Assembly (NCBI GenBank): GCA_963732935.1
Contig: CAVTBK010000001.1
Location: 497,624 to 561,623, forward strand
DNA length: 64,000 nucleotides
Origin: an uncultured Acidobacteriota bacterium
GTDB taxonomy: Bacteria > Acidobacteriota > Vicinamibacteria > Fen-336
Direction: 5' to 3'
The notes below the pieces were generated by a model. It saw only the letters and a list, made by a program, of their open reading frames with translations. It was not told the origin of the DNA and searched no databases. Every line of letters begins with the position of its first letter. Position 1 is the stretch's first letter. Shown here piece by piece: positions 13,148 through 56,307 of the stretch. The translations under genes were made by a program, and so were the position numbers.

Positions 13148-13214
13148 GGGCTTCCAGCGATCATGCCAGCGTTCGACCGCCGCGTCATCCGGCTGTGCTA
13201 GTCTCTGGTACGAA

Positions 13215-16176: not shown

Positions 16177-16284
16177 CGCCTTGAAGGTTAATCGAGCCGC
16201 AGGCCGGGGCGAAAATCGAGGCGGGCACGCGCCGCATCCCGCCCTCGACAGGTTTGTCTGCCCTGCTGCAAGGGGCGACATTTC

Positions 16285-16293
16285 TGTCATACT
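16285..16293 (+). promoter_or_regulatory. Extended -10 box TGtCATACT 7 nt upstream of ATG 16301 (leaderless-type geometry)
   Basis: TGn plus CATACT immediately upstream of the start codon; no SD sequence. Confidence 0.3.
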
Positions 16294-16300
16294 CGGCGCG

Positions 16301-17830
<1,530 letters not shown>

Positions 17831-23163: not shown

Positions 23164-23230
23164 GGCGCGATTATCTCCCACTGCCTTCCGGGTCGGCCCC
23201 GGCGCCGATGCTAGAATCGCTCCTCGCCCC

Positions 23231-26200
23231 GTGACCTCGCGTCCTCTGGTCCTGCTCGTCCCTTCCCTGGCAGCGGCGCTCGAGCTGCCGCGGCGGCTCG
23301 CCTCGACCGGGGCGGCCCTGGCGGACCTGTACGCGTGGAAACCGCTCGACCTGGCCCGCGAGGTCGCCGAGCCGGTGCTGCTCGGGCGCGGGCTCCAACC
23401 CTGGACCGGCGGACACGATGCGCTCCTCGCCACCCGGCTGCTGGGTGAGGACGGCGAGCGGGGCCTCGTCCTTCCCCAGGGCGCGCCGCGGGCGCCGGTG
23501 GCGGCGGCGCTGGCTCGTACCCTCGCGGCCCTGCGCCGCAGCCGGGTCGCGCCCGAGGCCGTGGCCGCGCTCGCCGAGCGGGCGGACGACGTCGAGGACG
23601 TCCGGCGCCTCCGCGCGCTCGCCCGTCTCCAGCGCCGCTTCGAGGAAGCCCTCGAGGGCAGGACGGCCGATCCGGTCACGATCCTGGACGCCGCGCGCGC
23701 CGAGCTCGCGCGGGCGCCCCTCCTGGCCGACGCCGAGATCCTGCTGGTCGACGACCTCGAGCTCGAGCCGGGGGAGCTCGCGCTCGTAACCGCGCTCGCC
23801 GAGCGTGGATCCCTGCGTGTCGTCCGCCGGCCGCTGCCGCCCTCACTGCGTCCCGGCTCGCTCCGCGCAGCCCTCGCCGCGCACGGGGTGGCGGAGGTGG
23901 ACTGGTCACTGACCCCGCTCGCCCCGGTGGCGCCTGCCGAGCCGCCCGCGTCGCTCCTCCGGCTGCGCGAGCGGCTCTTCGAGCCCCCGAGCGGCGAGGC
24001 CCTGGAGGACGGCGCGGTCGAGCTGGTGACGGCCGCCGGCGAGGCAGGCGAGGCCCGCGCGGTGGTCCGGCGCCTCCTGCGTGCGGCGGCCGCCGGCGTG
24101 CCCTTCGAGGAGATGGGCGTCGTGCTGCCGCGGCCCGAGGCCTATGCGCCGCTCTTCACGGACCTGCTGACGCGGCTCGGCATCCCGCATCGGCTCCACC
24201 CCTCCTTGCCCCTGCGCTTCGGGCGCGCGGCGCGCTCGCTCCTCCTGCTCTTCCGCTGCCGCGGCCTCGAGCGACCCGCGGTCATGGAGCTCCTGACCTT
24301 CGCGCCGGTCCCCTTCGAGGCGCTGCTCGGCACCGAGGTCGAGGCGTGGCCTTCCCGCTGGGACGCGCTCAGCCGGGAGGTCGGCATCGTCTCCGGATTG
24401 AGCCGCTGGATCGTCGGGCTGCGGGCCGCGGCCGAGGCCGAGCGCGAGGCCGCCGCGGGCGAGCCTGAGGGCGAGCGGCGGAGCCATCGGCTGCGCCAGG
24501 CGGCCGACGCCGAGGCGCTGCTGCACGTGGTCGAGATCCTCGGGGCGACGCTCGAGTCGCTCGCCGGGGAGGCGTCCTGGCCCGAGTGGGTGGAGCGCCT
24601 GCGCACGGTGTGCGACCAGTGGATCGGGGCCGAGCGCGACCGCGACGCGCTGCTCGAGCTGATCGCGGACCTGGGCGCGCTCGGCTCCGTGTCTTCGCGC
24701 GCGGCCTGGGGGGAGGTCGAGCAGGTCCTCGAGGCGCGCCTCGAATGGGAGCGCCTGCCCGCCGATCCCCCGGCGAGCGGTGCCGTGCACGTCGGGGCCC
24801 TCGACGCGATGGCCGGCCTCAGCTTCCGCGTGCTCGCGATCCCCGGTCTGGTCGAGGGCGGCTACCCGGGCGTGTTCCGCCAGGACCCGTTCCTGCTCGA
24901 TGCGGAGCGGATCGCCCTCGCCGCGATGCCGCCGAGCGGCGGAGGGCGGGCGGCGGAGACGGGCGGGCCCCGCGCGCAACGCGTCCCGCGACCGGCGCGA
25001 GGGCGCCACGCGCGAGGACGCGACCAGGCCGGAGGCGCGCAGCTCGAGCTGTTCGGAGGGGCCACGCCGGACGCAAGCGGGCCGGCGCCGGAGGCGGCGG
25101 CGAGAGAGAGGATGCCTCAGGCCTCGACGCCGATCGCGACGCCGCTTCCCACCAGCCAGGATCGTCTCCAGGAAGCCAGGCGGCTCTTTCATCGGGCGGT
25201 CTCGCAGGCGGGCGAGCGTCTCGTCCTCTCCTATCCGCGCGCGGACGGACGCAGCGGGCGCGAGCGTTTGCCGTCGCTCTTCTTCGCCGCCGCAGCCGCG
25301 ACCCTGGCCGGGCGGCCGCTCGCGGGACCCGAGCTCGCGGGGCTCGTGAGCGAGGATGACCCCGCGGCGCTGGCGCTCGAGGACGCGCTCGACGCGGGCG
25401 AGCGGGACCGCCTCCGCCTGCTGCGCGACCCGTCCGCGGCCACGGCGATTGCGGCGGGCTCGGCGTGCTTCCGCCACTCGCGCCTCGCCAGCCAGGCCCG
25501 CTGGTCGGGCCGGCTCACCCGCTACGACGGGATGGTGGGCGACGCCGACGGGACGTTGGCCGAGCGCTTCGATCCCCTGGCGGCCCCGCACCCCGCCTCC
25601 GCCAGCCGGCTCGCGACCTACGCCCGCTGCGGCTTCCAGTACCTGCTCGCGCACGTGATGCACCTCGAGCTCTCGCCCGAGCCGGAGGAACGCAGGCGGA
25701 TCGAGCCGCTCGAGCGGGGCGACCTCTTCCACCGCGTGGCGGAGCGCTTCCTGCGGGAGTGCCGCGACCGGGGCGAGCTGCCGCTCGTCGACGGCGAGCC
25801 GGTCCGCGCGCGCCTGCGCGTGCTGGCCGAGGAGGCGCTCGAGGGGCTGGTCGCGTCGAGCCCGCCGCGCTTCACCCTCCTCTGGCAGCGCGAGAAGCGG
25901 CGCTTCCACGAGACCATGCAGGACTGGCTGGGCCGGGAGGCGGCCGCTCGCGGCCGCTCGACGCCCGTCCACTTCGAGCTCAGCTTCGGCCTCGGCCTGC
26001 GGCCGGGCCCGGAGGAGCCGCACGACCCCGACCCGCTCGAGATCGATCTGGGCGACGGCCGTACGCTGCGCGTCTGCGGGCGGATCGACCGCATCGACCG
26101 CCGCGCGGAGGGCGGCCTCGTGCTGCGTGACTACAAGACAGGGCGGGCCCCGCGCGACGACGGCGGGATCTTCCGCGGCGGGCGGCAGCTCCAGATCCCC

Positions 26201-26509
26201 TTCTACGTGCTGGCGGCAGGCCGGCTGCTGCCGGGCGAGCCGGTGGTCGACGCCTTCCTCGACTACGTCGACGGGGGCCGCCAGGTCGCTTTTCGTCCCG
26301 ATCTCGTGTCGAGCGAGTCGTTCCGCGGTCTGCTGCGGAGCCTGGTCTCGCTGATCGCGCGGGGCGCGTTCGTCCAGGAGCCGACCGCCTGCGACTGGTG
26401 CGACTTCACCTCGGTCTGCGGGCCCAAGGCGCTTCTCGCGCGACGTCAGGGGATGAAGGTGGGGGACGCCGTGTTGCAGGAATACCTGCGCCTGCGGGAC
26501 GTGGGATGA
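23231..26509 (+). CDS. addB: AddB-like double-strand-break repair nuclease (PD-(D/E)XK with C-terminal Cys cluster); start uncertain (GTG 23231 chosen)
   Basis: C-terminal LVLRDYKTGRAP and FxxPxxTACDWCDFTSVCG (Fe-S type nuclease domain). Extended -10 TGcTAGAAT at 23209..23217. Confidence 0.65.
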   Translation: MTSRPLVLLVPSLAAALELPRRLASTGAALADLYAWKPLDLAREVAEPVLLGRGLQPWTGGHDALLATRLLGEDGERGLVLPQGAPRAPVAAALARTLAALRRSRVAPEAVAALAERADDVEDVRRLRALARLQRRFEEALEGRTADPVTILDAARAELARAPLLADAEILLVDDLELEPGELALVTALAERGSLRVVRRPLPPSLRPGSLRAALAAHGVAEVDWSLTPLAPVAPAEPPASLLRLRERLFEPPSGEALEDGAVELVTAAGEAGEARAVVRRLLRAAAAGVPFEEMGVVLPRPEAYAPLFTDLLTRLGIPHRLHPSLPLRFGRAARSLLLLFRCRGLERPAVMELLTFAPVPFEALLGTEVEAWPSRWDALSREVGIVSGLSRWIVGLRAAAEAEREAAAGEPEGERRSHRLRQAADAEALLHVVEILGATLESLAGEASWPEWVERLRTVCDQWIGAERDRDALLELIADLGALGSVSSRAAWGEVEQVLEARLEWERLPADPPASGAVHVGALDAMAGLSFRVLAIPGLVEGGYPGVFRQDPFLLDAERIALAAMPPSGGGRAAETGGPRAQRVPRPARGRHARGRDQAGGAQLELFGGATPDASGPAPEAAARERMPQASTPIATPLPTSQDRLQEARRLFHRAVSQAGERLVLSYPRADGRSGRERLPSLFFAAAAATLAGRPLAGPELAGLVSEDDPAALALEDALDAGERDRLRLLRDPSAATAIAAGSACFRHSRLASQARWSGRLTRYDGMVGDADGTLAERFDPLAAPHPASASRLATYARCGFQYLLAHVMHLELSPEPEERRRIEPLERGDLFHRVAERFLRECRDRGELPLVDGEPVRARLRVLAEEALEGLVASSPPRFTLLWQREKRRFHETMQDWLGREAAARGRSTPVHFELSFGLGLRPGPEEPHDPDPLEIDLGDGRTLRVCGRIDRIDRRAEGGLVLRDYKTGRAPRDDGGIFRGGRQLQIPFYVLAAGRLLPGEPVVDAFLDYVDGGRQVAFRPDLVSSESFRGLLRSLVSLIARGAFVQEPTACDWCDFTSVCGPKALLARRQGMKVGDAVLQEYLRLRDVG

Positions 26510-29500
26510 GCGGCTTTCGCCCCGTCGACGAGGAGGCGCGCGCCCGCACGCGCGGCGACCACGCGTCCAGCCTCGTGCTCGAGGCCGGCGCCGGAACCGG
26601 CAAGACGACCCTGCTGGTGGACCGGATCGAGGCGATGCTGCGCGCGGGCGCGGCCCGCCTGGAGGAGATCGCGGCCGTCACCTTCACCGAGAACGCGGCC
26701 ACCACCATGAAGCTCCGCCTGCGCGAGCGCCTGGAGCGGGCGCGGGCGGACGAACGCCTGCCCGCGAGCGAGCGGGAGCGTGTGGCCGCCGCGCTCGAGG
26801 TCCTCGAGCGGGCCAGCATCTCGACCATCCACGCCCTGTGCGCCCAGATCCTGCAGGAGCGCCCGCTCGAGTGCGGCGTCCTGCCGGGCTTTCGCGTGGC
26901 CGACGAGACGGAGGCGGACCGCCTGTTCACGGCGGCCTGGGAAGAGTGGCTGGGCGAGCACCTGGCCGGGGGCGACGAGGTCCTGCTGGATGCCCTCGAC
27001 CGTGGCATCCCGCTCGAGGGCGAGGGCCCCTGGGGCGAGCGGGGCTCGCTGCGCGGCCTCGCCCGCACGCTCCTCGAGCAGCGCGACCTCCAGCCGCTGG
27101 CCGCCGACGGCGCCTTCGTGCCCGAGGCCGCGCGTGAGGAGCTGCTGGCGCGGGCCGCGCGGACCCGAGAGCTGGTCGCCTCGGTGAGCGAGGGCGACAG
27201 CCTGGCCGGTCGCCTTCTCCGTCTCGCGGAGCTCGCCGAGGAGTCGCGCGGCCTTTCCGGGAAGGACCTCGAGCGGCGGCTGCTGGCCCTCGAGCCGATT
27301 CCAGCCAACTTCGGCTTCAAGCCTCACTGGCCGTCGCCGGAGGCGCTGGCGGAGGGCCGGGCGATCGCGGGCTGGTCGAAGGAGGCCCGCGCCCGCTGGA
27401 CGGCGGCGGTCGGGTCGGACCTGCACGGCCGCCTGGTCCGCGCGCTCGGCGGGGTGGCGGCTCTTTACGAGCGGCGCAAGGCCGAGCGAGGCGTCCTCGA
27501 CTTCCTCGACCTGCTGCTGCGGGCGAGGGACGCCCTCCGCGATCGCGCGGGCGTCCGCGCCTGGTTCGCGCGGCGTTTCCTGCACCTGGTGATCGACGAG
27601 TTCCAGGACACCGACCCGCTGCAGGTCGAGATCGCGCGGCTCCTCACCCGGGGCCGCCCCGGGGGGCTGGTGGTGGTCGGCGACGCCAAGCAGTCGATCT
27701 ATCGCTTCCGGCGCGCGGAGGTGCGGCTCTTCCGCGAGCTGGCCCGGGCCGCGGAGCCGGCCTCGGCGGGGCCGGCCATCCTGCACCTGGTGCAGAACTT
27801 CCGCTCGCGGCCGGCCATCCTGCGCTTCGTCAACCGCGTCTTCGCCGAGCTCATCCAGTCCTCGGAGGAGGCGGATCAGCCGGGCTACGAGGCGATCGCG
27901 CCGCCGCCGGGGCTCCCCGACGAGCCGGCGGTCGTGGCCCTTCGTTTCCCGGCCCCGCCCAACGCGAGCGGGGAGGACCTGCTCAAGGCCGAGGCTGGGG
28001 CCCTCGCGGCCTTTCTGGCCGACATCGGCCGCGGGCGCGAGCCGGTCCGCGATCCCGTCTCGGGCACGGTGCGCCCGAGCCGGGCCGGCGACGTGCTGGT
28101 GCTCGCCCGCCGGCTGACGCAGGTGGCCGCGCTCGAGGAGGCGCTCGAGGCGGCGGGGCTGCGCTTCAGCGTCGAGGGCGGGAAGTCGTTCTTCGACCGG
28201 CAGGAGGTCCACGAGGCGCTCGCGGTGCTGCGGGCGATCGACGATCCTTTCGACCGCATCGCGCTCGTCGCGGCGCTTCGTTCGTCCTTCTTCGGCGTGA
28301 GCGACCGCGACGTCGTGGCCTATGCGCTCGCCGGGCCGCGTCTTTGGGGCCCGATCGACGAGGATCGGCCCGGCGCCGAGGCGCTCGCCCCTGCCTTCGC
28401 CCTGCTCGGGGAGCTGCACCGGCTGCGCCGGCACGCGAGCGTCCCCTTCCTGCTCGAGCGGCTCTACGAGCAGACGCGCGTGCTGGCCGCGCTCACCGGG
28501 TCGCGGCGCGGCGAGGCGCAGATCGCGAACCTGGAGAAGGTCGCGGCGCTCGCGCGGGAGGCCTCGGCGCTCGGCGCCCTGACCCTGCGCGGCTTCACGC
28601 GTCTGCTCGAGGACCGGATCGCGAACGCGCGCGAGGAGCCGGACCTGCCCTCGACGCGGCCGGGAGACCCCGACACCCTGCGGATCCTCTCGATTCACAG
28701 GGCCAAGGGGCTCGAGGCCCCGGTCGTGGCCCTCTACGACACCGCCGACAGCGGCCGCAGCGCGGTCGACACCGTGGCGCTCTGGGACGAGGGGCGCATC
28801 GCGGTGGGCTTCCGGGGCGGCTGCCAGCCTCCGGGCTGGGACGCGCTCGTGCGCCAGGAGGAGAAGAAGGCGCGCGCCGAGTCGCGGCGCCTGCTCTACG
28901 TGGCCTGCACCCGCGCCCGCGACCTCCTCGTGATCCCCCGCCCGCCCGCGGACGCGGCCCTGGGCGACTTCTGGAAGGAGCTCGTGGAGCGGCTCCCGGC
29001 GAAGAGCGACGCCGAGGTGCGCGTCGTCGACGCCGAGACCGTGGCGACCCCCGAGCCGGCCGGCCGCGGGCGCGAGCTGTGGGCGCTCGCTTCGGCCGAA
29101 GGTGGCGACGCCGTCGCCGCCCGCTGGCACGAGGAAAGGCGCCTCCTGCTCGAGCGGGCCGGCGAGCGCCTGCTGCCGATTTCCGCGACCCGGCTGGCGG
29201 CACGCACTGCGCCTCCCCCGGTCGTCGCCGAGGGGGTGAAAGGCGGGCGAGACTTCGGCAGCCTCGTGCACCGGCTGCTGGAGTTGCTTCCCTTCGACGT
29301 CGCGGAGCCGCGCGCCCGGGCGATGGCTGAAGCGCTCGCCCCCTGGTTCGGTCTCGACGCGGCGGCGGCCGAGCGCGCGGCCGTCCAGGTGGAGCAGATC
29401 CTGCGCTCGTCCCTGCTCGAGCGCGCGCGGCGGGCCTCTCGCGTCTGGCGCGAGCTGCCTCTGTGGTTCCCGGACGGCGGGCGTCTGGTCGAGGGCGTCG

Positions 29501-29706
29501 TCGATCTCGTGTTCGAGGAAGACGGGCAGCTGGTGGTCGTCGACTACAAGACCGACGCGATCAGCGAGGAGCAGGCGCTGGCGCAGGCCGCGCACCACGC
29601 GCCGCAGCTCCAGCTCTACGGCCGGGGCCTGGCGCAGGCCCTGGCACGACCGGTGCGCGAGCGCCTGGTCGTCTTCACCACGAACGGCCGCAGCGTGCCG
29701 GTGTAG
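26506..29706 (+). CDS. addA: AddA-like UvrD/Rep-family helicase-nuclease
   Basis: ATGA overlap with addB. Helicase motifs: Walker A AGAGTGKT, HLVIDEFQDTDPLQ, RILSIHRAKGLEAPVV. C-terminal nuclease VVDYKTD. Confidence 0.8.
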   Translation: MSGFRPVDEEARARTRGDHASSLVLEAGAGTGKTTLLVDRIEAMLRAGAARLEEIAAVTFTENAATTMKLRLRERLERARADERLPASERERVAAALEVLERASISTIHALCAQILQERPLECGVLPGFRVADETEADRLFTAAWEEWLGEHLAGGDEVLLDALDRGIPLEGEGPWGERGSLRGLARTLLEQRDLQPLAADGAFVPEAAREELLARAARTRELVASVSEGDSLAGRLLRLAELAEESRGLSGKDLERRLLALEPIPANFGFKPHWPSPEALAEGRAIAGWSKEARARWTAAVGSDLHGRLVRALGGVAALYERRKAERGVLDFLDLLLRARDALRDRAGVRAWFARRFLHLVIDEFQDTDPLQVEIARLLTRGRPGGLVVVGDAKQSIYRFRRAEVRLFRELARAAEPASAGPAILHLVQNFRSRPAILRFVNRVFAELIQSSEEADQPGYEAIAPPPGLPDEPAVVALRFPAPPNASGEDLLKAEAGALAAFLADIGRGREPVRDPVSGTVRPSRAGDVLVLARRLTQVAALEEALEAAGLRFSVEGGKSFFDRQEVHEALAVLRAIDDPFDRIALVAALRSSFFGVSDRDVVAYALAGPRLWGPIDEDRPGAEALAPAFALLGELHRLRRHASVPFLLERLYEQTRVLAALTGSRRGEAQIANLEKVAALAREASALGALTLRGFTRLLEDRIANAREEPDLPSTRPGDPDTLRILSIHRAKGLEAPVVALYDTADSGRSAVDTVALWDEGRIAVGFRGGCQPPGWDALVRQEEKKARAESRRLLYVACTRARDLLVIPRPPADAALGDFWKELVERLPAKSDAEVRVVDAETVATPEPAGRGRELWALASAEGGDAVAARWHEERRLLLERAGERLLPISATRLAARTAPPPVVAEGVKGGRDFGSLVHRLLELLPFDVAEPRARAMAEALAPWFGLDAAAAERAAVQVEQILRSSLLERARRASRVWRELPLWFPDGGRLVEGVVDLVFEEDGQLVVVDYKTDAISEEQALAQAAHHAPQLQLYGRGLAQALARPVRERLVVFTTNGRSVPV

Positions 29707-29730
29707 CGGTCCTGGGGCGCTCCGCGCGCG

Positions 29731-29739
29731 TGCTAGAGT
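29731..29739 (+). promoter_or_regulatory. Extended -10 box TGcTAGAGT exactly 10 nt upstream of ATG 29750 (leaderless-type)
   Basis: TGn plus TAGAGT; no SD between box and start. Confidence 0.35.
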
Positions 29740-29749
29740 CGCTCTGCAG

Positions 29750-30682
29750 ATGGCGTCTCCCCTCCCCGCTCCGGATCGCCCGGCCTTCTCGTGGTCGGCC
29801 TCGCGCCACGACACCTTCGCGACCTGCCGCCGGCGCTACTTCTACTCGTACTACGCCTCCTTCGAGGACGAGGAGGTACGGCGTCTCAAGAAGCTGTCGG
29901 CGCTGCCCCTCTGGGCCGGCAGCGTCGTCCACGACGCGATCGAGCGCTTCCTGCGCGAGAACGACGCCGTTCCCGATCCCGAGGCGCAGGAGGCGCTCGT
30001 CCGCCAGGTGGTCCACGGCACGATGGTGTCCGACTGGCGCGAGAGCGAGGCCGGCGGGCGCTTTCGCCTCTTCGAGCACGAGTACCAGGTGCCGGTCGAG
30101 CAGGAGGACAAGCGGATCGCGGTGAACGTGGTGATGCGCTCGCTGCGCAGCTTCTTCCGGGGAGAGACGCTCGCGCACGCGATGGAGCTCGGCCGCGGGA
30201 GCCGGCTCGCGCTCGAGGACCTCGCTTCCTTCCCGGTCGGCGACACGGAGGTGCTGGTCCGCATGGACCTCGCCTACCGCGAGCCAGACGGCCGGGTGGT
30301 GATCGTGGACTGGAAGACGGGCCGGGGCGAGGGCCGCTTCAACGAGGTGCAGATCGCCGGCTATGCGCTCTGCGCTGTCGAGAAGGGCTGGGTCGACGAT
30401 CCCGAGCAGATCACGACCCAGCTCGACTACCTGGCCCTGCCCAAGAGCGTGCGTCGCTCCGTGACCCCGCAGAAGATCGAGGCCGCCCGGCGTTTCATAG
30501 AGCGCAGCGCCCGCGACATGAAGGCCCTGCTCGTCGATCCGATCGCGAACCTCGGCCGGATCGAGGACTTCCCGATGATCGACCGGCCTCAGGTCTGCCG
30601 TCGCTGCAACTTCCGGCGGCTCTGCTTCCCGCGCGCCGAGGAGACCCGGCTCTCCGGCGCGGCGCCGACGCCCTCCCGCTGA
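29750..30682 (+). CDS. PD-(D/E)XK nuclease, Cas4/RecB-family-exonuclease-like, with 4-Cys cluster
   Basis: N-terminal C..RRYFYSYY, core D..E.K-type (VIVDWKTG), C-terminal CRRCNFRRLC. Confidence 0.65.
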   Translation: MASPLPAPDRPAFSWSASRHDTFATCRRRYFYSYYASFEDEEVRRLKKLSALPLWAGSVVHDAIERFLRENDAVPDPEAQEALVRQVVHGTMVSDWRESEAGGRFRLFEHEYQVPVEQEDKRIAVNVVMRSLRSFFRGETLAHAMELGRGSRLALEDLASFPVGDTEVLVRMDLAYREPDGRVVIVDWKTGRGEGRFNEVQIAGYALCAVEKGWVDDPEQITTQLDYLALPKSVRRSVTPQKIEAARRFIERSARDMKALLVDPIANLGRIEDFPMIDRPQVCRRCNFRRLCFPRAEETRLSGAAPTPSR

Positions 30683-45721: not shown

Positions 45722-45825
45722 CATCGGCCCGAGATCGCGTCGGCCCGCGCTGGCGGCACGGGCGGCGACATCCTCTGCGTCACGGCTCCGCCAAGGACCG
45801 CCGCGGTTCTGCTACGCTTCCCGGC

Positions 45826-45959: not shown

Positions 45960-48152
45960 TCAGCGCCCGGCGGGTGGCGGGGAGGCGCTCTCCCCGCTCG
46001 GAAGACCCGCGGCGATCGCCTTGCCGAGGAGAGCCCGGAGGCGCTCGAGCCGCTGCGGGGGCAGGGCCCGGGCGCCGCGAGCGAGGAGATCCACGACGGC
46101 GCGCTCGTCGGCGGCGAAGACGGCGCCGCTCGTGCGCGCGCGCTCGTAGCCGCGGACGTCGTCGCGCTCGATCGGGTTGAGCCCCCGGACGAGCTCCTCC
46201 CGCAGCGCATCCAGCTCGAGAGCCTCTTCGCGAGTGAGCGCCCTCCGGCCGCGGTCGGCGGCGTCTCCCGCCGCCTGGAAGACGTGGATCAGGTCGGGGG
46301 TCTCGTCGGAGCTGCGCGAGAGGACGAGCTGGATCGTCGCGGACGAGAGCTGCGGCAGCTGCTCGGCGCCTTCCTCCAGCAACCGCTGTCGCGCCTGGCC
46401 GATCCGCTCCGAGCGCACCTGCCGGTCGATGCGAGTGAGGGCCGCCTGCCCGACTTCGCCCGCTTTCGGGAACCAGCTGCGCCAGGTCATGGCGGCGAGA
46501 GCGCCGCCGCCCACGAGGAGCGCAAGCAGGACGACGCGCTTCGTCCAGAGCCAGGCCACGGAGACGAACGCCCGGAACCCTGGCCCCGCCTCGCCGTCGT
46601 CGCCGTCGTAGACCTCGCCCCACGTCTCCGGCTCAGGGACCTCGGCCAGACGGAGCGTGGGCAGCTCGCCGAGGGCGGGCGGCGGCTTCAGGGCCGGGGG
46701 CGCCGGCAGGAGCGGCAGGAGCGGACGGGGCTGCGGGGCGGGCGGGCGCGGCTCGACGGCGGGCGTCACGGGAAGGAGCGGCTTTGCTTCGGGCACTCGG
46801 GCCGGCTTGCGCGGAGCCGGAGCGATGCTGGCCAGCAGCTCACCGAGCGAGCGGGGTTCGTCGACGGGCGGAGGCCCCTCGCTCGCCGCCGCGGCCGCGA
46901 TGCGCTGCGCTTCCTCTCGCCGCTTCGCTGCCTCGCGCCGAAGGGCGGCACGCCGCAGCCGTTGCTGCCGTTCGAAGCGGACCAGCGCATTCAGGAGGCG
47001 GCTCAGGAAGCCCCCGAAGGTCGCGAGGGCCTGGAAGAAGGCGACGTCCGCGGGGTCCCTGAGGGTCGAGAGCTCCTCCGCGCCGTCCGGATAGTCCGCG
47101 TCTTCCGGGGCGCGCGGGGTCGAGAGCGCGCCACCCTGCCAGACCGTCTCACGGTCCCGTTGCGCGTCCGCCTCGAGGGGCTTCAGCGGGATGACCGGGA
47201 AATCCTCTTCGTAGGCCTCCGTCGGTGCTCGATCAGGGGAGGCAAGGGGATCGGCGGCGACCACGAGGTTCGGTGTCTGCGCGGAGGCCGGGTCCTTCGC
47301 GAGGGGGACGACCTTCGTGAGCGGCTCCTCCTCGAGGGGCACCAGCGGGATCGGCGGTGCGCTGTCATCCGGTCGCGTCGTGGGACGCGGAACGGGCTTC
47401 CATGCGGGCGCCGTTGGCTCGGGCGTGCGTGCCTCGCGTTTGCGACGTGGCGCGGGCTTGGGCGGACGCTCGGCGGCGGGTTCGGCGGCCAGCACCTCCA
47501 CCTGCGCGATCACGCGGCGCTCGACGATGACGGAGGGTGGAGCCACGGCCGGGGGCTCGACGGGGGCCGGGGGCTCGACGCCTGTGGAGACTGTGGATGG
47601 CGCCGGGGCAGAAGGCGGCGGTGTTGGTGGCGACGGCGTCCACGGCGGGCTCGAAGGCGGTGGGGGCGGCGGTGGCGGCGTCGGCGGTGGCGGCGTCGGC
47701 GGTGGCGGCGTCCAGTGCGGCGGGCTCGCGAGTGGCGTGCGCACGGGTGGCGGTGGCTCTGGCCGTGGCTCTGGCGGCGTCGGGGGCGGTGGCGTCGGAG
47801 GCTCGGCCATCGGAGGGCGCGCGCTGGGTGTCACGGGTGGCGGTGTCGGTGGCGGCGGGGTTGGCGTTGGCGCTTCGTCGCGCTCGCGCACCGGCTCTCC
47901 CTTGGGCGGCGGCGGGATGAGCGGAAGCTCCGCGCGTGTTCTCGCCGTCCGCCGAGGCGTCGCGCGCCGCTCCGCCGCCCGCTCCGCCACCTGCTCCGCC
48001 GCCAGGAACTCCCTCAGCGGAACCCGGAGCCTCGAGCCCTCGGGCTGCACCATCGCCTTGCGGTCCACGAGCCAGGTGCTCAGGCTGTCGTGGTCCACGA
48101 GAAGGATCGTGCCGTCGCCGAGATGCAGTTGGTAGCGCTGGGACAATGCCAA
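45960..48152 (-). CDS. Proline-rich repeat protein with single TM, unknown function
   Basis: 730 aa. Structured N-terminus, long PPPPTPPP tracts, TM WLWTKRVVLLALLVGGGALAAM, C-terminal helical domain. Confidence 0.6.
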   Translation of the reverse strand: MALSQRYQLHLGDGTILLVDHDSLSTWLVDRKAMVQPEGSRLRVPLREFLAAEQVAERAAERRATPRRTARTRAELPLIPPPPKGEPVRERDEAPTPTPPPPTPPPVTPSARPPMAEPPTPPPPTPPEPRPEPPPPVRTPLASPPHWTPPPPTPPPPTPPPPPPPPSSPPWTPSPPTPPPSAPAPSTVSTGVEPPAPVEPPAVAPPSVIVERRVIAQVEVLAAEPAAERPPKPAPRRKREARTPEPTAPAWKPVPRPTTRPDDSAPPIPLVPLEEEPLTKVVPLAKDPASAQTPNLVVAADPLASPDRAPTEAYEEDFPVIPLKPLEADAQRDRETVWQGGALSTPRAPEDADYPDGAEELSTLRDPADVAFFQALATFGGFLSRLLNALVRFERQQRLRRAALRREAAKRREEAQRIAAAAASEGPPPVDEPRSLGELLASIAPAPRKPARVPEAKPLLPVTPAVEPRPPAPQPRPLLPLLPAPPALKPPPALGELPTLRLAEVPEPETWGEVYDGDDGEAGPGFRAFVSVAWLWTKRVVLLALLVGGGALAAMTWRSWFPKAGEVGQAALTRIDRQVRSERIGQARQRLLEEGAEQLPQLSSATIQLVLSRSSDETPDLIHVFQAAGDAADRGRRALTREEALELDALREELVRGLNPIERDDVRGYERARTSGAVFAADERAVVDLLARGARALPPQRLERLRALLGKAIAAGLPSGESASPPPAGR
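47665..47709. repeat. 15-bp tandem repeat x3 inside the Pro-rich gene
   Basis: ggcggcggtggcggc / gtcggcggtggcggc / gtcggcggtggcggc; encodes PPTPP repeats on the minus strand. Confidence 0.7.
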
Positions 48153-48390
48153 CCTCCTACGGATCCCTCGTTGACATCGTCCGCGGTGTGCCGAACACGG
48201 ACACTACCGCCGAGGGGCACGAACGTCAATGCCTTCGCTCGCCTCGCCTGGCTCCCCGAGACGGGAGGCCGGCAGCAGGTTCGAGGCCCGAGCCACGGCC
48301 GCGTGGAACGCCGCCGGCGCCCGCCTCCGGGCGGCCGGGGCGGCGGGTGCTAGAATGCGGGTCGATGAGACCTTCGGCAGTGCCGTCCGC

Positions 48391-50241: not shown

Positions 50242-50276
50242 CCTCGCATGGTAGCAAGCGCGCCCGTGAGACACGG

Positions 50277-50702: not shown

Positions 50703-51671
50703 GTGGCGGTGGTCGCGATCGCGGCCGCCGGCGGCCTCCTCTACCTCGCCTACGCGCCGGCGGGCGACGCCAGGCCGCATCCGTTCAACCACGATCGCAA
50801 CGCCGTCTGGCTCGAGCACCGCTGGCTCGAGCGCCCGCACAGCGAGGCGCAGATGGAGGCGCTCTTCCTGCGCCTGCGGCGGCGTGGCGTCATCTACCTC
50901 TATCCGCACCTGATCCCCTTCGACCGGGAGGGCAACCTGCCGCCCCACGACCGCGACGAGATGCGGGCCTTCCTGACCGTGGCCCGCCGGGTCGCCCCCG
51001 AGCTGCGGCTGCTGCCCTGGGTCGGGGGCCTGCGCGCCGGCTACAGGCGGCAGCGGGTGGGTGTCCTGGAGCTGAGCGACCTCAACCAGCGGCAACGCAT
51101 CGTCGCCGAGGTGCGTGGCCTGATGGACGAGGGGTTCGACGGGATCCACCTCGACGTGGAACCGGTGAACGACGGCAACGTGGAGTTCCTGGCGATGCTC
51201 CGCGCTCTGCGCCCGGCGCTGGGCGAGGGGCGTCTCCTCTCGGTCGCCGCCACCCGCCCCGCCCCGCTCGGCCTGCCGCCCGCGCCCAATTTCGCGTGGA
51301 GCCCCGAGTACTACGCGCGCGTCGCGCACCTGGTCGACCAGCTCGCGATCATGGCGTACGACACGGCGCTGCCGACGCCGGCCCTCTATCGGCGCTACGT
51401 CGAGTGGTCGGCCTCCTCCGTGGCGGGCGCGCTCTCCGCCTCCGGATCCGAGGCGCGCGTGCTGATGGGTGTCCCGACCTACGACAACTTCGGCTTCATG
51501 CACCGGGCCGGTGTCGAGACCCCGGAGAACGCGCTCCTCGGTATCGTGGCGGGCCTGCGGGGCCTGGGCGCGGGTGGCACCTTCGAGGGGGTCGCGATCT
51601 ACGCCGACTGGACGACCGACGATGCCGACTGGGCCGTCTACGAGCGGCTCTGGCGCAACCACGGGCGCTAG
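50703..51671 (+). CDS. Membrane-anchored TIM-barrel-like protein with GH18-type DGIHLDVE motif (putative glycoside hydrolase, DUF4015-like)
   Basis: N-terminal TM; FDGIHLDVEP resembles the GH18 DGxDxDWE catalytic motif. Confidence 0.45.
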   Translation: MAVVAIAAAGGLLYLAYAPAGDARPHPFNHDRNAVWLEHRWLERPHSEAQMEALFLRLRRRGVIYLYPHLIPFDREGNLPPHDRDEMRAFLTVARRVAPELRLLPWVGGLRAGYRRQRVGVLELSDLNQRQRIVAEVRGLMDEGFDGIHLDVEPVNDGNVEFLAMLRALRPALGEGRLLSVAATRPAPLGLPPAPNFAWSPEYYARVAHLVDQLAIMAYDTALPTPALYRRYVEWSASSVAGALSASGSEARVLMGVPTYDNFGFMHRAGVETPENALLGIVAGLRGLGAGGTFEGVAIYADWTTDDADWAVYERLWRNHGR

Positions 51672-51787: not shown

Positions 51788-53074
51788 ATGGAGTGGGTTC
51801 GTAGCAGGACGGCAGGCATCCTGGCCTGCGCCGGATTCGCCGCCGGGCTGCTGAGCGGACGGACGGCCGCGGCAGTCGACGTCGACGGGGCCGGCAACGT
51901 GGTGATCGTGCCGCTGGTGTTTTCGGGGTTCGAGCGCTCCTCGAGCGTCACCGTGACCAACGCCGGGGGCGGCCCGATCGACGTCACCGCGGACTATGTC
52001 GGGGCGGAGGGCACGCCGAAGGATGCGGCGGTGGTCGGGCCGATCTCCTGCGGGAGCCAGAGGCTCGACGGCGGGCAGAGTCGCAGCTTCCCGCTCGCGG
52101 ACTGGTGTCCGCCGCTGGCCCCGGTGGACGTGGAGAACTTCGGCTACCTGAAGCTGACGTCGGATGGCGACGGCCGCATCAGCTTCTCCGCCACCAGCTC
52201 GATCAGGACCGCGAAAGGAACGGTCTCCGTCATTCCGGGGCAGCCCATAGGTGCCTTCGACCCGGGGAGGCGACCCCTCTCGATTCCGGGCGCGCCGTCG
52301 ACCCTGCGGGTGATGGGGTTCGAGGACATGCACCACGTGGCCTGCTACTTCGGGTCGCTCGACGAGCCCACGGAGGTGGAGCTGTCGCTGCTCGACACCA
52401 CCGGTCAGGTGATGGTCTCCGGCTTCAAGCTCAAGCTGGGCGCGGAACGCATGAAGCGCGTGCTTCCCTTCACCGCGTTCGGGCCGGTGCTGGACGCCCG
52501 CCTCGTCGTGGAGCCTTTGTCCGCACCCTCCCTGGTCGTCGCGAGCTGCGCCGAGGAGAGTCCGCTCGACGGCACCGTCGCCTACCTGCCGGCCCGGACC
52601 CCGGACCCTCTCGACGATTCGCGCCTCCACGTCGTGCTGGCAGACGCCGGCGTCCAGATGGGTCCCTACAGGGTCGGTGACCTCTGGACCCACAGGCTGG
52701 TCGGAGATCCGGCCAGCCGGAAGGTCACGCTCACCACCTACCTGCGCCCGGACGACCGGGTGTACTGCACTCTGAGAGTGCCACCCTACCCGGGCAGCTT
52801 CGATCCCAGCCCGTGGCTCGAGCTGCAGATGAGGGCTCCCGACGGGACCGTCGTGGCCGGGGGCAGCGGCGCCAAGGATACCGGCGTCTTCTCGACGGGT
52901 CATCGCGGACGCTACCGGGACGAACGCTGGCACCTGGACGTTTCCTTCGACGAGGCGGCAGGCCCCTGGCCGGGCAGCCAGCCGAAGGGAATCTGGGCGG
53001 TCGTCTGCGAGAGCGCCGCCGGCATGTCGTCGCTGCTCACGGTCGACGATCCGACGGCGACCGACGATTTCTGA
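51788..53074 (+). CDS. Secreted hypothetical protein, paralog A
   Basis: GGGGGAAGG RBS. Signal peptide. Shares VIxPLV...YVG...ISC...FGxLxL...VVCESxxGxSxL blocks with the downstream gene. Confidence 0.6.
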   Translation: MEWVRSRTAGILACAGFAAGLLSGRTAAAVDVDGAGNVVIVPLVFSGFERSSSVTVTNAGGGPIDVTADYVGAEGTPKDAAVVGPISCGSQRLDGGQSRSFPLADWCPPLAPVDVENFGYLKLTSDGDGRISFSATSSIRTAKGTVSVIPGQPIGAFDPGRRPLSIPGAPSTLRVMGFEDMHHVACYFGSLDEPTEVELSLLDTTGQVMVSGFKLKLGAERMKRVLPFTAFGPVLDARLVVEPLSAPSLVVASCAEESPLDGTVAYLPARTPDPLDDSRLHVVLADAGVQMGPYRVGDLWTHRLVGDPASRKVTLTTYLRPDDRVYCTLRVPPYPGSFDPSPWLELQMRAPDGTVVAGGSGAKDTGVFSTGHRGRYRDERWHLDVSFDEAAGPWPGSQPKGIWAVVCESAAGMSSLLTVDDPTATDDF

Positions 53075-53090
53075 GACCCGCGCAGGAGGA

Positions 53091-54329
53091 ATGGAGACCG
53101 CCATGTCACACGCACGAATCGTCACGGCAGCGCTCGTCGCCGGCCTCGCGACCGCCGCCGCTCCCCCGTCCCGCGCCGCGAGCGCCGGGGACGCGGGTCC
53201 CTCCCTGGTCATCCCTCTCGTCCAGTACGACGGAGCGGCGGACAGCGACGTGTACGTCGAGAACCACGAGCAGCACGACGTCGAGGTCCAGCTGCGCTGG
53301 GTGGGCGAGCCGGCCAGCAGCACGCCCGGACTCCGCATCTGCCGCAACGAGATTCTCCTCGCCCGCCACCTCACCGGGCTCCGGCCCGTCAACTCCTGCT
53401 CGCTCTCCCACACCAACGAATTCGGGATGCTGGTGATCCTCGCTACCAAACCCTCGGGTCTGGCGCGACTGTCGGCCCGCGGGAACATCGCGGTCAAGGG
53501 CGGCGGAAAGGTGATGGTCGACGGCCTGCCCCTCGCGGACCTCGAGTCCACCGACGTCGTCCACGTGGTGGGCGGTCTGGCGTCCGATCCCTCGGGGAGC
53601 CTGTTCCCGCCGTCCACCACGGACTGCCTGTTCGGCACCTTCTTCGACGGGAGCGGTGTGGGTGGCGCGGTGGTGCGCTTCGGGCTCCGTGACTCGGACG
53701 GGCGGCCGCTGGGCAAGGACGTCCTCGCCGCCGCGAAACCGTTCTCGCTGACGCGCTTCTCCGACGTCTTCAAGCTGGTCGGCGCCCCTCCCGCTGCCTA
53801 CGACGACGTCCGCGCCGTGTTCGCGCCGGGAGGCGGCGGCGACGCGGTGGTGGGCTATTGCCTGACGACGGCGCCGACTCCCCAGGGGGAGACACGGGCC
53901 TACGCGCTCGCGCGGGTGGACGAGCCCGAACAGGGAACGCGGCGGCGCATCATCAAGGTCGTTTCGACTCCCGAGGTGCTAGGGGGCCGGAGCTTCCGGC
54001 TCGATCCCTCCCTGAGCAAGGTTTCGCACGGGCTCTTCGTGCAGCACCCGGACCGCTTCCGATGCGCCGTGGCGTCGGCGAGCGGCGGTGGCGAGCTGGT
54101 CCTCACGATGGTCTCCCCCGACCATGTGTTCTTCGGGGGGCAGACCGCGTCGACGGGCTGGTTGGATACCGGCCCGCGCAGCCAGACGAACCGGGGCCAG
54201 GCGGGCCTGTGGGGCCTGGAGGTGTCCTGGGCCCCCGGCGCGACACGGAGCCGCCCCGTCGAGTACGTGATCTCGTGCGAGAGCGGCAACGGCGTGAGCC
54301 TGGCCGACCAGCTCGTGCGCGTGCCGTAG
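53091..54329 (+). CDS. Secreted hypothetical protein, paralog B
   Basis: AGGAGGA RBS. Signal peptide. Conserved blocks as above (YVISCESGNGVSL versus AVVCESAAGMSSL). Confidence 0.6.
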   Translation: METAMSHARIVTAALVAGLATAAAPPSRAASAGDAGPSLVIPLVQYDGAADSDVYVENHEQHDVEVQLRWVGEPASSTPGLRICRNEILLARHLTGLRPVNSCSLSHTNEFGMLVILATKPSGLARLSARGNIAVKGGGKVMVDGLPLADLESTDVVHVVGGLASDPSGSLFPPSTTDCLFGTFFDGSGVGGAVVRFGLRDSDGRPLGKDVLAAAKPFSLTRFSDVFKLVGAPPAAYDDVRAVFAPGGGGDAVVGYCLTTAPTPQGETRAYALARVDEPEQGTRRRIIKVVSTPEVLGGRSFRLDPSLSKVSHGLFVQHPDRFRCAVASASGGGELVLTMVSPDHVFFGGQTASTGWLDTGPRSQTNRGQAGLWGLEVSWAPGATRSRPVEYVISCESGNGVSLADQLVRVP

Positions 54330-56198: not shown

Positions 56199-56307
56199 CT
56201 ACCGCCACTATAGCAGTGGCAGCGTACGCTCACGGCCACCCAGGGGTACTGGGGGACGGCGCCGCCGGCGCGAGCGACCGCGCCCGACGAGCGATTTCGA
56301 CCTAGTG

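Follow-up and report, generated by a model that had tools for sequence, protein, structure and literature searches.

A stand-alone iron-staple nuclease gene behind a divergent addB-addA pair in Vicinamibacteria

Three genes and their products

The stretch of DNA analysed here, called the window throughout, covers 64 kilobases (kb) at 72% G+C (contig CAVTBK010000001.1, positions 497,624 to 561,623); the best relatives in the databases are metagenome-assembled genomes that belong to the class Vicinamibacteria (Acidobacteriota). Three consecutive forward-strand genes are considered: an addB-like gene (23231-26509; 1092 amino acids, aa), an addA-like gene (26506-29706; 1066 aa, with an ATG start at 26506 and a TAG stop at 29704-29706), and a third gene, here named P3 (29750-30682; 310 aa, ATG start), which matches the 310-aa gene reported in a preliminary description of this DNA. 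The TGA stop codon of addB and the ATG of addA overlap as ATGA in the window sequence, as that description had stated; the intergenic spacer between addA and P3 is 43 nucleotides (nt) long, one less than the 44 given there. The addB reading frame is open from 23147, and its likely start is the GTG codon at 23231, since homologues align from residue 1 of that start. All three open reading frames (ORFs) have the codon-position G+C pattern of real genes, with a G+C fraction at third codon positions (GC3) of 0.92-0.93.

The AddA-like protein carries the Pfam domains UvrD-helicase (E 4.8e-50), UvrD_C and, at the C-terminus, PDDEXK_1 (E 2.8e-12), and its closest solved relative in a search of PDB sequences is AddA of Bacillus subtilis (E 1.4e-51). 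Its C-terminal RecB-type nuclease domain (approximately nt 29248-29640) shows the motifs GSLVH, D...DYK and QLQLY in translation and contains no cysteines, which is normal for AddA. The AddB-like protein ends in a PDDEXK_1 domain (residues 817-1091, E 3.9e-36; nuclease domain at approximately nt 25595-26419); no helicase family exceeds the Pfam threshold in this protein, and its N-terminal part is helicase-like without detectable motor motifs. It has a 1+3 arrangement of cysteines, consisting of an upstream YARCGFQY and the previously noted C-terminal cluster CDWCDFTSVC, located at nt 26390-26419 (CxxCxxxxxC), and its sole match among PDB sequences is B. subtilis AddB (3u44_B, E 8e-7), to which it is colinear. 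In established AddAB biochemistry, AddA provides the single superfamily 1 (SF1) motor together with a nuclease that acts on the 3' strand, and AddB combines an inactive helicase-like scaffold with a nuclease for the 5' strand that is stapled by an iron-sulfur (Fe-S) cluster. Judged by the UvrD and PDDEXK_1 domains of AddA and by the B. subtilis proteins as best PDB matches, the two large genes are an AddAB-type helicase-nuclease pair with one predicted motor, in agreement with the earlier assignment.

The pair falls far short of the NCBIfam equivalog cut-offs (278 versus 708 bits for addA_Gpos, 231 versus 861 for addA_alphas, 55 versus 904 for addB_Gpos), and the NCBIfam addB models match the window's AddB only partially; these scores therefore indicate a divergent AddAB lineage outside the curated Gram-positive and alphaproteobacterial subfamilies. 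The AddAB of B. subtilis (PDB 3U44/4CEH) is likewise encoded by adjacent, translationally coupled genes in the order addB-addA, and likewise combines a UvrD-like SF1 AddA bearing a cysteine-free RecB nuclease with an AddB that has a 1+3 cysteine staple and no detectable motor motifs. In contrast to this system, the window proteins are very divergent, and a gene for a free-standing iron-staple nuclease follows addA; in B. subtilis, the genes that come after addBA are presumably sbcD-sbcC.

Over its full length, P3 belongs to PF12705 (PDDEXK_1; E 1.5e-23), the sole Pfam family reported for it. Its translation contains both cysteine motifs of the preliminary description, TCRRRYFYSYY and VCRRCNFRRLC, with C26 and C283/C286/C292 (CX2CX5C; the latter three at nt 30596-30625) as predicted cluster ligands, and RecB motifs I to IV are represented by H61, D173, D187-W-K189 (nt 30308-30316) and Q201-xxx-Y205. 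In an alignment of 54 family members with 29-63% identity to P3, the residues W15, S16, C26, G57, H61, D173, D187, W188, K189, Q201, C283, C286 and C292 are invariant, and Y205 is kept in at least 90% of the sequences; all four cysteines and the catalytic D173 and D187-x-K189, whose presence the preliminary description had left to be checked by alignment, are thus conserved without exception. By these features P3 is a PD-(D/E)XK nuclease of the Fe-S type, complete in length and with intact catalytic residues, that belongs with the "iron-staple" nucleases of Cas4, AddB and AdnA; the Fe-S cluster and the nuclease activity are predicted. Three nuclease domains are indeed encoded at this locus, as the preliminary description had claimed; the four-cysteine signature that it attributed to all three is confined to AddB and P3.

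Structural comparison and profile searches lead to the same superfamily. An AlphaFold2 model of P3 (predicted local distance difference test score 93.6, predicted template modelling score 0.90) was matched by Foldseek first to ACE1 (E ~1e-8, template modelling score 0.6-0.7, probability 1.00) and then to the AdnA nuclease domain, followed by Dna2, Cas4 SSO0001 and a type I-C Cas4, with probability 1.00 for AdnA, Dna2 and Cas4. ACE1 was also the top match of the P3 family profile among PDB sequences (E 2e-12), in a search that also hit AdnB, and the AdnB nuclease was the top PDB match of a single-sequence search. P3 aligns end to end with the nuclease domain of the window's own AddB (26% identity, E 1e-8), with the cysteines and catalytic motifs in register; a recent duplication of that domain was rejected as the origin of P3 on account of this low identity and of the large, multi-phylum family to which P3 belongs, which comprises 1670 clusters at 50% identity in an exhaustive HMMER search (E ≤ 0.001), its top scorers being mostly full-length proteins of about 300 aa. 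The best PADLOC model, matched over the full length, was the Argonaute-associated Cas4-like nuclease PDLC02406 (E 7e-21).

Among characterised nucleases, ACE1 is like P3 a stand-alone, helicase-free protein (about 270-310 aa in both cases) with a D...DxK site and 1+3 cysteines; yet the two are only 16-17% identical, and P3 is approximately 35 residues longer, its length being closer to the reported 313 aa of ACE2. ACE1 is a single-stranded DNA (ssDNA) endonuclease through whose narrow channel ssDNA is threaded, and it resembles the nuclease domains found in AdnA and in AddB (PMC12094033). ACE1 occurs in cyanobacteria only and is usually co-encoded with a long-A Argonaute, whereas P3 lies behind addAB without an Argonaute neighbour; no Argonaute (Piwi) gene was found among the approximately 30 annotated ORFs of the window or in the gene tables of the relatives examined, and an Argonaute association of P3 was accordingly rejected. 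With a match to PDLC02406 but no Argonaute context, P3 is therefore related to the ACE families without being an ACE by context. The nuclease domains of mycobacterial AdnA and AdnB share the fold and the iron-sulfur staple of P3, but both are fused to UvrD-like motors, whereas P3 is free-standing and the adjacent pair is of the one-motor AddAB type. Cas4 and solo-Cas4 proteins (TIGR00372, PF01930) have the PD-(D/E)XK fold and four cluster cysteines in common with P3; however, P3 is about 100 residues longer, and the Cas4 models are only weak matches (20.3 bits against a cut-off of 65 for TIGR00372). No CRISPR-like direct repeats were found in the window, nor any cas gene among its annotated ORFs. 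The earlier label "Cas4-like" thus holds at the level of the iron-staple superfamily and not for Cas4 proper; a bona fide Cas4 or a CRISPR context was rejected on the TIGR00372 score, the PF12705-only Pfam result and the lack of CRISPR-like repeats. Cas4-like proteins of pfam12705 that are not CRISPR-linked, and stand-alone forms outside CRISPR loci, have been documented (Hudaiberdiev et al., 2017; PMC5704561).

Gene order and expression signals

A genome-collection scan with a P3-family alignment yielded 80 loci, in 70 of which P3 was more than 50% identical to that of the window; essentially all of these were labelled Vicinamibacteria/Acidobacteriota. The scan was seeded with a narrower alignment, the 54-sequence one being too diverse, and is consequently biased toward the window's own subfamily; the larger YYGxWGGW subfamily was sampled separately, from metagenomes. 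Neighbouring addAB genes were sought by tBLASTn with the window's AddA and AddB, and 58 loci had enough upstream DNA to be informative. The order addB-addA-P3 on the same strand was found in 53 of these 58 Vicinamibacteria loci, which answers the question, raised in the preliminary description, of whether the third gene is conserved beside addAB in relatives. The gap between addA and P3 measures at most 100 nt in 29 loci; in 24 others it contains 0.2-4.5 kb of other genes, and in the window's clade this spacer is a gene-insertion hotspot. Identity to the window has medians of 66% for P3, 63% for AddA and 55% for AddB across 36 trio loci, and of 61%, 48% and 42%, respectively, in a deep clade (11 loci); P3 identity ranges across the class from 59 to 84%, and its ratio of nonsynonymous to synonymous substitution rates (dN/dS) of 0.24-0.31 is similar to those of AddA and AddB. 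P3 is under purifying selection and at least as conserved as AddA and AddB.

Outside the class, P3 homologues (~90 loci) stand alone, and addAB was adjacent in none of 80 metagenome loci of the YYGxWGGW subfamily; the linkage of P3 to addAB is real but lineage-specific, being confined to one bacterial class. In two of the same 80 loci, an AddB-like and AddA-like pair occurs approximately 7 kb downstream of the P3 homologue (L148, ~17.4-20 kb; L152, ~7.4-10.4 kb), either as a loose linkage in a second lineage or by coincidence.

In the deep clade, the flanking genes of the window (BrkB/DUF4013 upstream, DLH/CcsA/ResB downstream) were not found and the trio was kept, so that the linkage amounts to more than inherited synteny. 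At all 16 deep-clade loci, the P3 reading frame continues open through the addA stop codon, whose TGA overlaps with a TTG or GTG start; in 9 of the 16, this overlapping start is the only possible one. The last valine codon of addA in these loci is GTT in 12 cases, GTG in four and GTC in none, while the valine codons of the preceding addA sequence are 55% GTG, 31% GTC and 12% GTT. The rare GTT has been kept where it gives rise to a TTG start, which argues for translational coupling of addA and P3.

A different arrangement is found in the window's clade. When the upstream regions of P3 were anchored on its conserved FSWS codons, an extended -10 motif TGnTAnnnT (mostly TGCTAGAGT) appeared once in 47 of 70 distinct Vicinamibacteria loci, as well as in the window, ending 6-10 nt before the ATG or GTG of P3; in the window it reads TGCTAGAGT (29731-29739, forward strand) and lies 10 nt before the P3 ATG. 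The motif is present both where the addA stop lies upstream and where an inserted, unrelated gene does; conservation does not extend to the remainder of the spacer, and the start/stop-overlap clade lacks the motif. A generic scan for sigma-70 promoters and terminators returned nothing between 22800 and 31000, because it demands a -35 hexamer; it took a comparison across species to reveal the -10 element. In a pattern search of the window, TGNTANNNT has seven matches, all beginning with TGCTA and equal to the number expected by chance: 13196-13204, 23209-23217, 29731-29739, 45810-45818 and 48348-48356 on the forward strand, and 50248-50256 and 56207-56215 on the reverse strand. Six of the seven are correctly oriented and precede a gene start by 6-13 nt, among them the addB element TGCTAGAAT (23209-23217, 13 nt upstream of the GTG start) and the match at 45810-45818, which ends 7 nt before the 5' end of the transfer RNA gene tRNA-Met (45826); the seventh, at 48348, is followed only by a nine-codon ORF. 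The occurrence of the same motif before addB, tRNA-Met and other gene starts therefore suggests that it is the general -10 element of this organism, serving leaderless or near-leaderless transcripts. On this comparison of motifs, the putative P3 promoter is of constitutive type and not evidence of special regulation: the separate extended -10 box of P3 proposed in the preliminary description is supported, being conserved in 47 species loci and the window.

In many species (L068, L012, L007, L009, L032, L061 and others), a second element, GG(T/A/C)CC(T/C)G, precedes the TG of the P3 -10 box by approximately 17 nt; in the window it is GGTCCTG, in the -35 region of the P3 promoter (29708-29714, forward strand). 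It was placed by alignment anchored on the -10 element, in which the consensus farther upstream reads GG.CC.G. It was not seen upstream of the window's other TGCTA promoters. An operator, a -35 element of unusual kind and the remnant of a terminator are possible explanations. In some species, but not in the window, the element has an inverted partner (L068: GGTCCTGcccgcgCAGGACC); a terminator hairpin was considered for GGTCCTG and rejected, as a strong hairpin forms in L068 and none in the window, L006 or L012.

Possible roles of P3

The preferred reading, to which a probability of roughly 0.55 is assigned, is that P3 is an active, ssDNA-cutting Fe-S nuclease that was recruited in the Vicinamibacteria as an accessory to AddAB-dependent end processing. 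The prediction that P3 threads and cuts ssDNA draws on the analogous enzymes ACE1 and Cas4 and on the AdnA and AddB nuclease domains. In this proposal, the AddAB pair would resect double-strand breaks and P3 would act as an accessory nuclease in the same pathway, trimming or degrading single strands, flaps or 5' tails exposed by the AddA motor or by another helicase. In the deep clade, P3 would be made by translational coupling to addA through the start codon placed over the stop; in the window's clade, it would be made from its own extended -10 promoter as a leaderless mRNA. A class-wide addB-addA-nuclease operon that is partly translationally coupled would point to an accessory factor of AddAB.

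Several observations weigh against an accessory role, beginning with the fact that gene order is the sole basis on which P3 would be tied functionally to AddAB, and they lend substance to a rival explanation that is possible but rather doubtful: P3 may be an independent housekeeping nuclease of the "solo" Cas4 family that serves in another transaction of DNA or RNA and lies behind addAB through inherited gene order in one class, uncoupled from it in function. The wider family of 1670 clusters occurs alone in many phyla with varied neighbours. At 11 genome loci with P3 homologues of 30-41% identity (in Anaerolineae, Alphaproteobacteria, Planctomycetia, Thermodesulfobacteriota and other Acidobacteriota), a search within 10 kb turned up neither an AddA-like nor an AddB-like gene, and the neighbours include GNAT, methyltransferase, NUDIX and RNA ligase genes, among others; across the wider family no conserved partner gene dominates, the largest cluster of neighbours being present at 9 of ~89 loci. 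Distant relatives (26-37% identity) are found on plasmids, in one case with a Piwi-domain gene alongside, as well as on IMG/VR viral contigs (≤37% identical), so that dedication to AddAB is not a property of the family in general. Within the class itself, the upstream DNA of P3 extends for at least 5.6 kb without addA in five loci, one of them holding the closest species-level relative of P3 (84% identity), and the adjacency of P3 and DLH is retained in some loci where that of P3 and addAB has been lost (for example in L006, L046 and L066). Unrelated genes, such as those for a 122-aa protein, a DEAD-box helicase or a periplasmic protein, are often inserted between addA and P3 in the window's clade; together with the P3 promoter found there, these insertions mean that co-expression of addA and P3 is not required. 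Inherited gene order alone would, however, have to account for an arrangement retained in 53 of the 58 informative loci, for the persistence of the trio where both of its flanks have changed, and for the start/stop overlap of the 16 deep-clade loci, with a rare GTT preserved to give a TTG start.

The accessory role can also be extended or redirected. P3 might be a stoichiometric third subunit in an "AddAB-plus-one" heterotrimer with three active nuclease sites, RecBCD-like in its number of subunits but built differently, and the overlap of addA and P3 in the deep clade would then represent the ancestral mode of expression; both parts of this suggestion are regarded as improbable. Even less credence is given to an anti-plasmid or anti-phage nuclease of the ACE or solo-Cas4 kind, which would join AddAB in breaking down foreign linear DNA instead of serving repair. 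Such a function would suit PDLC02406 as the top PADLOC model, ACE1 as the best solved structural match, and the distant homologues beside a Piwi-domain gene on a plasmid and on viral contigs; AddAB/RecBCD and solo-Cas4 have also been tied to interference with invading DNA (PMC12094033). It fits poorly with a window in which neither an Argonaute or cas gene nor a CRISPR-like repeat came to light, with a location in the conserved chromosomal core rather than a variable island, and with class-wide conservation at 59-84% identity and a dN/dS like that of housekeeping neighbours. P3 had no match in a phage genome collection, and the viral-contig relatives are no closer than 37% identity; a phage origin of P3 was rejected for the same reasons.

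What is new here is best called a class-specific three-gene AddAB locus, of modest interest, all three of whose proteins come from known superfamilies; in full-text searches of the literature on Cas4-like nucleases, solo-Cas4 and AddAB, no description of an addB-addA-Cas4-like operon was found at the level of titles and abstracts. To our knowledge, AddAB, RecBCD and AdnAB are the three bacterial end-resection machines known, each with a fixed set of subunits. An accessory role in AddAB-dependent end processing, if true, would give the largely uncharacterised "solo" Cas4-like nuclease family a physiological, non-defence role. The promoter comparison is useful by itself, in that it offers an extended -10 consensus (TGCTAnnnT) and evidence of leaderless transcripts for a soil lineage that is little studied and for the most part uncultured. 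None of these findings, which involve only known superfamilies, overturns current understanding.

Chromosomal context and further observations

On its 5' side, the trio is preceded by amtB-glnB and by MFS, DUF4013 and BrkB genes; on its 3' side it is followed by genes for DLH, CcsA/ResB and an FHA protein. Farther along the window are MutS2, DnaG, RpoD, tRNA-Met and the murG-murC-murB-ftsQ-ftsA-ftsZ cluster. As a whole, the window represents chromosomal core, not a variable island.

The insertions between addA and P3 include a conserved 122-aa protein of no known family (motif IRYLGFECTSEGRAY) in one sub-clade (L001, 8220-9925; also L008, L009, L011, L012, L013, L015 and L032), where a DEAD-box helicase is usually the next gene; other species carry a periplasmic or small membrane protein in this place instead. 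In L072 (3362-9243), the AddB and AddA matches that precede a 52%-identical P3 are split up into a number of pieces with low scores, which may represent decaying pseudogenes or frameshift errors in an assembly of long reads. On the cyanobacterial plasmid CP150887.1 (L086, 4995-8290), the beginning of a 794-aa hypothetical protein is overlapped by a 26%-identical PD-(D/E)XK homologue, with toxin-antitoxin and helicase genes in the same region; the two proteins are possibly a pair of the Argonaute-ACE type.

Elsewhere in the window, three successive gene-like ORFs on the forward strand (50703-51671 and 51788-54329; 322, 428 and 412 aa) are without a Pfam match at E ≤ 1e-4. A "tRNA-???" with a four-base anticodon, called by ARAGORN on the reverse strand at 17663-17752, falls inside a sigma-54 activator gene on the forward strand (16181-17830) and is probably a false positive. 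A 730-aa ORF on the reverse strand (45960-48152), without a Pfam match, has gene-like GC3; over about 250 nt (47620-47877) it consists of degenerate tandem repeats of 15 nt (GGCGGTGGCGGCGTC), which form an Ala/Pro/Thr-rich low-complexity segment on the coding strand.

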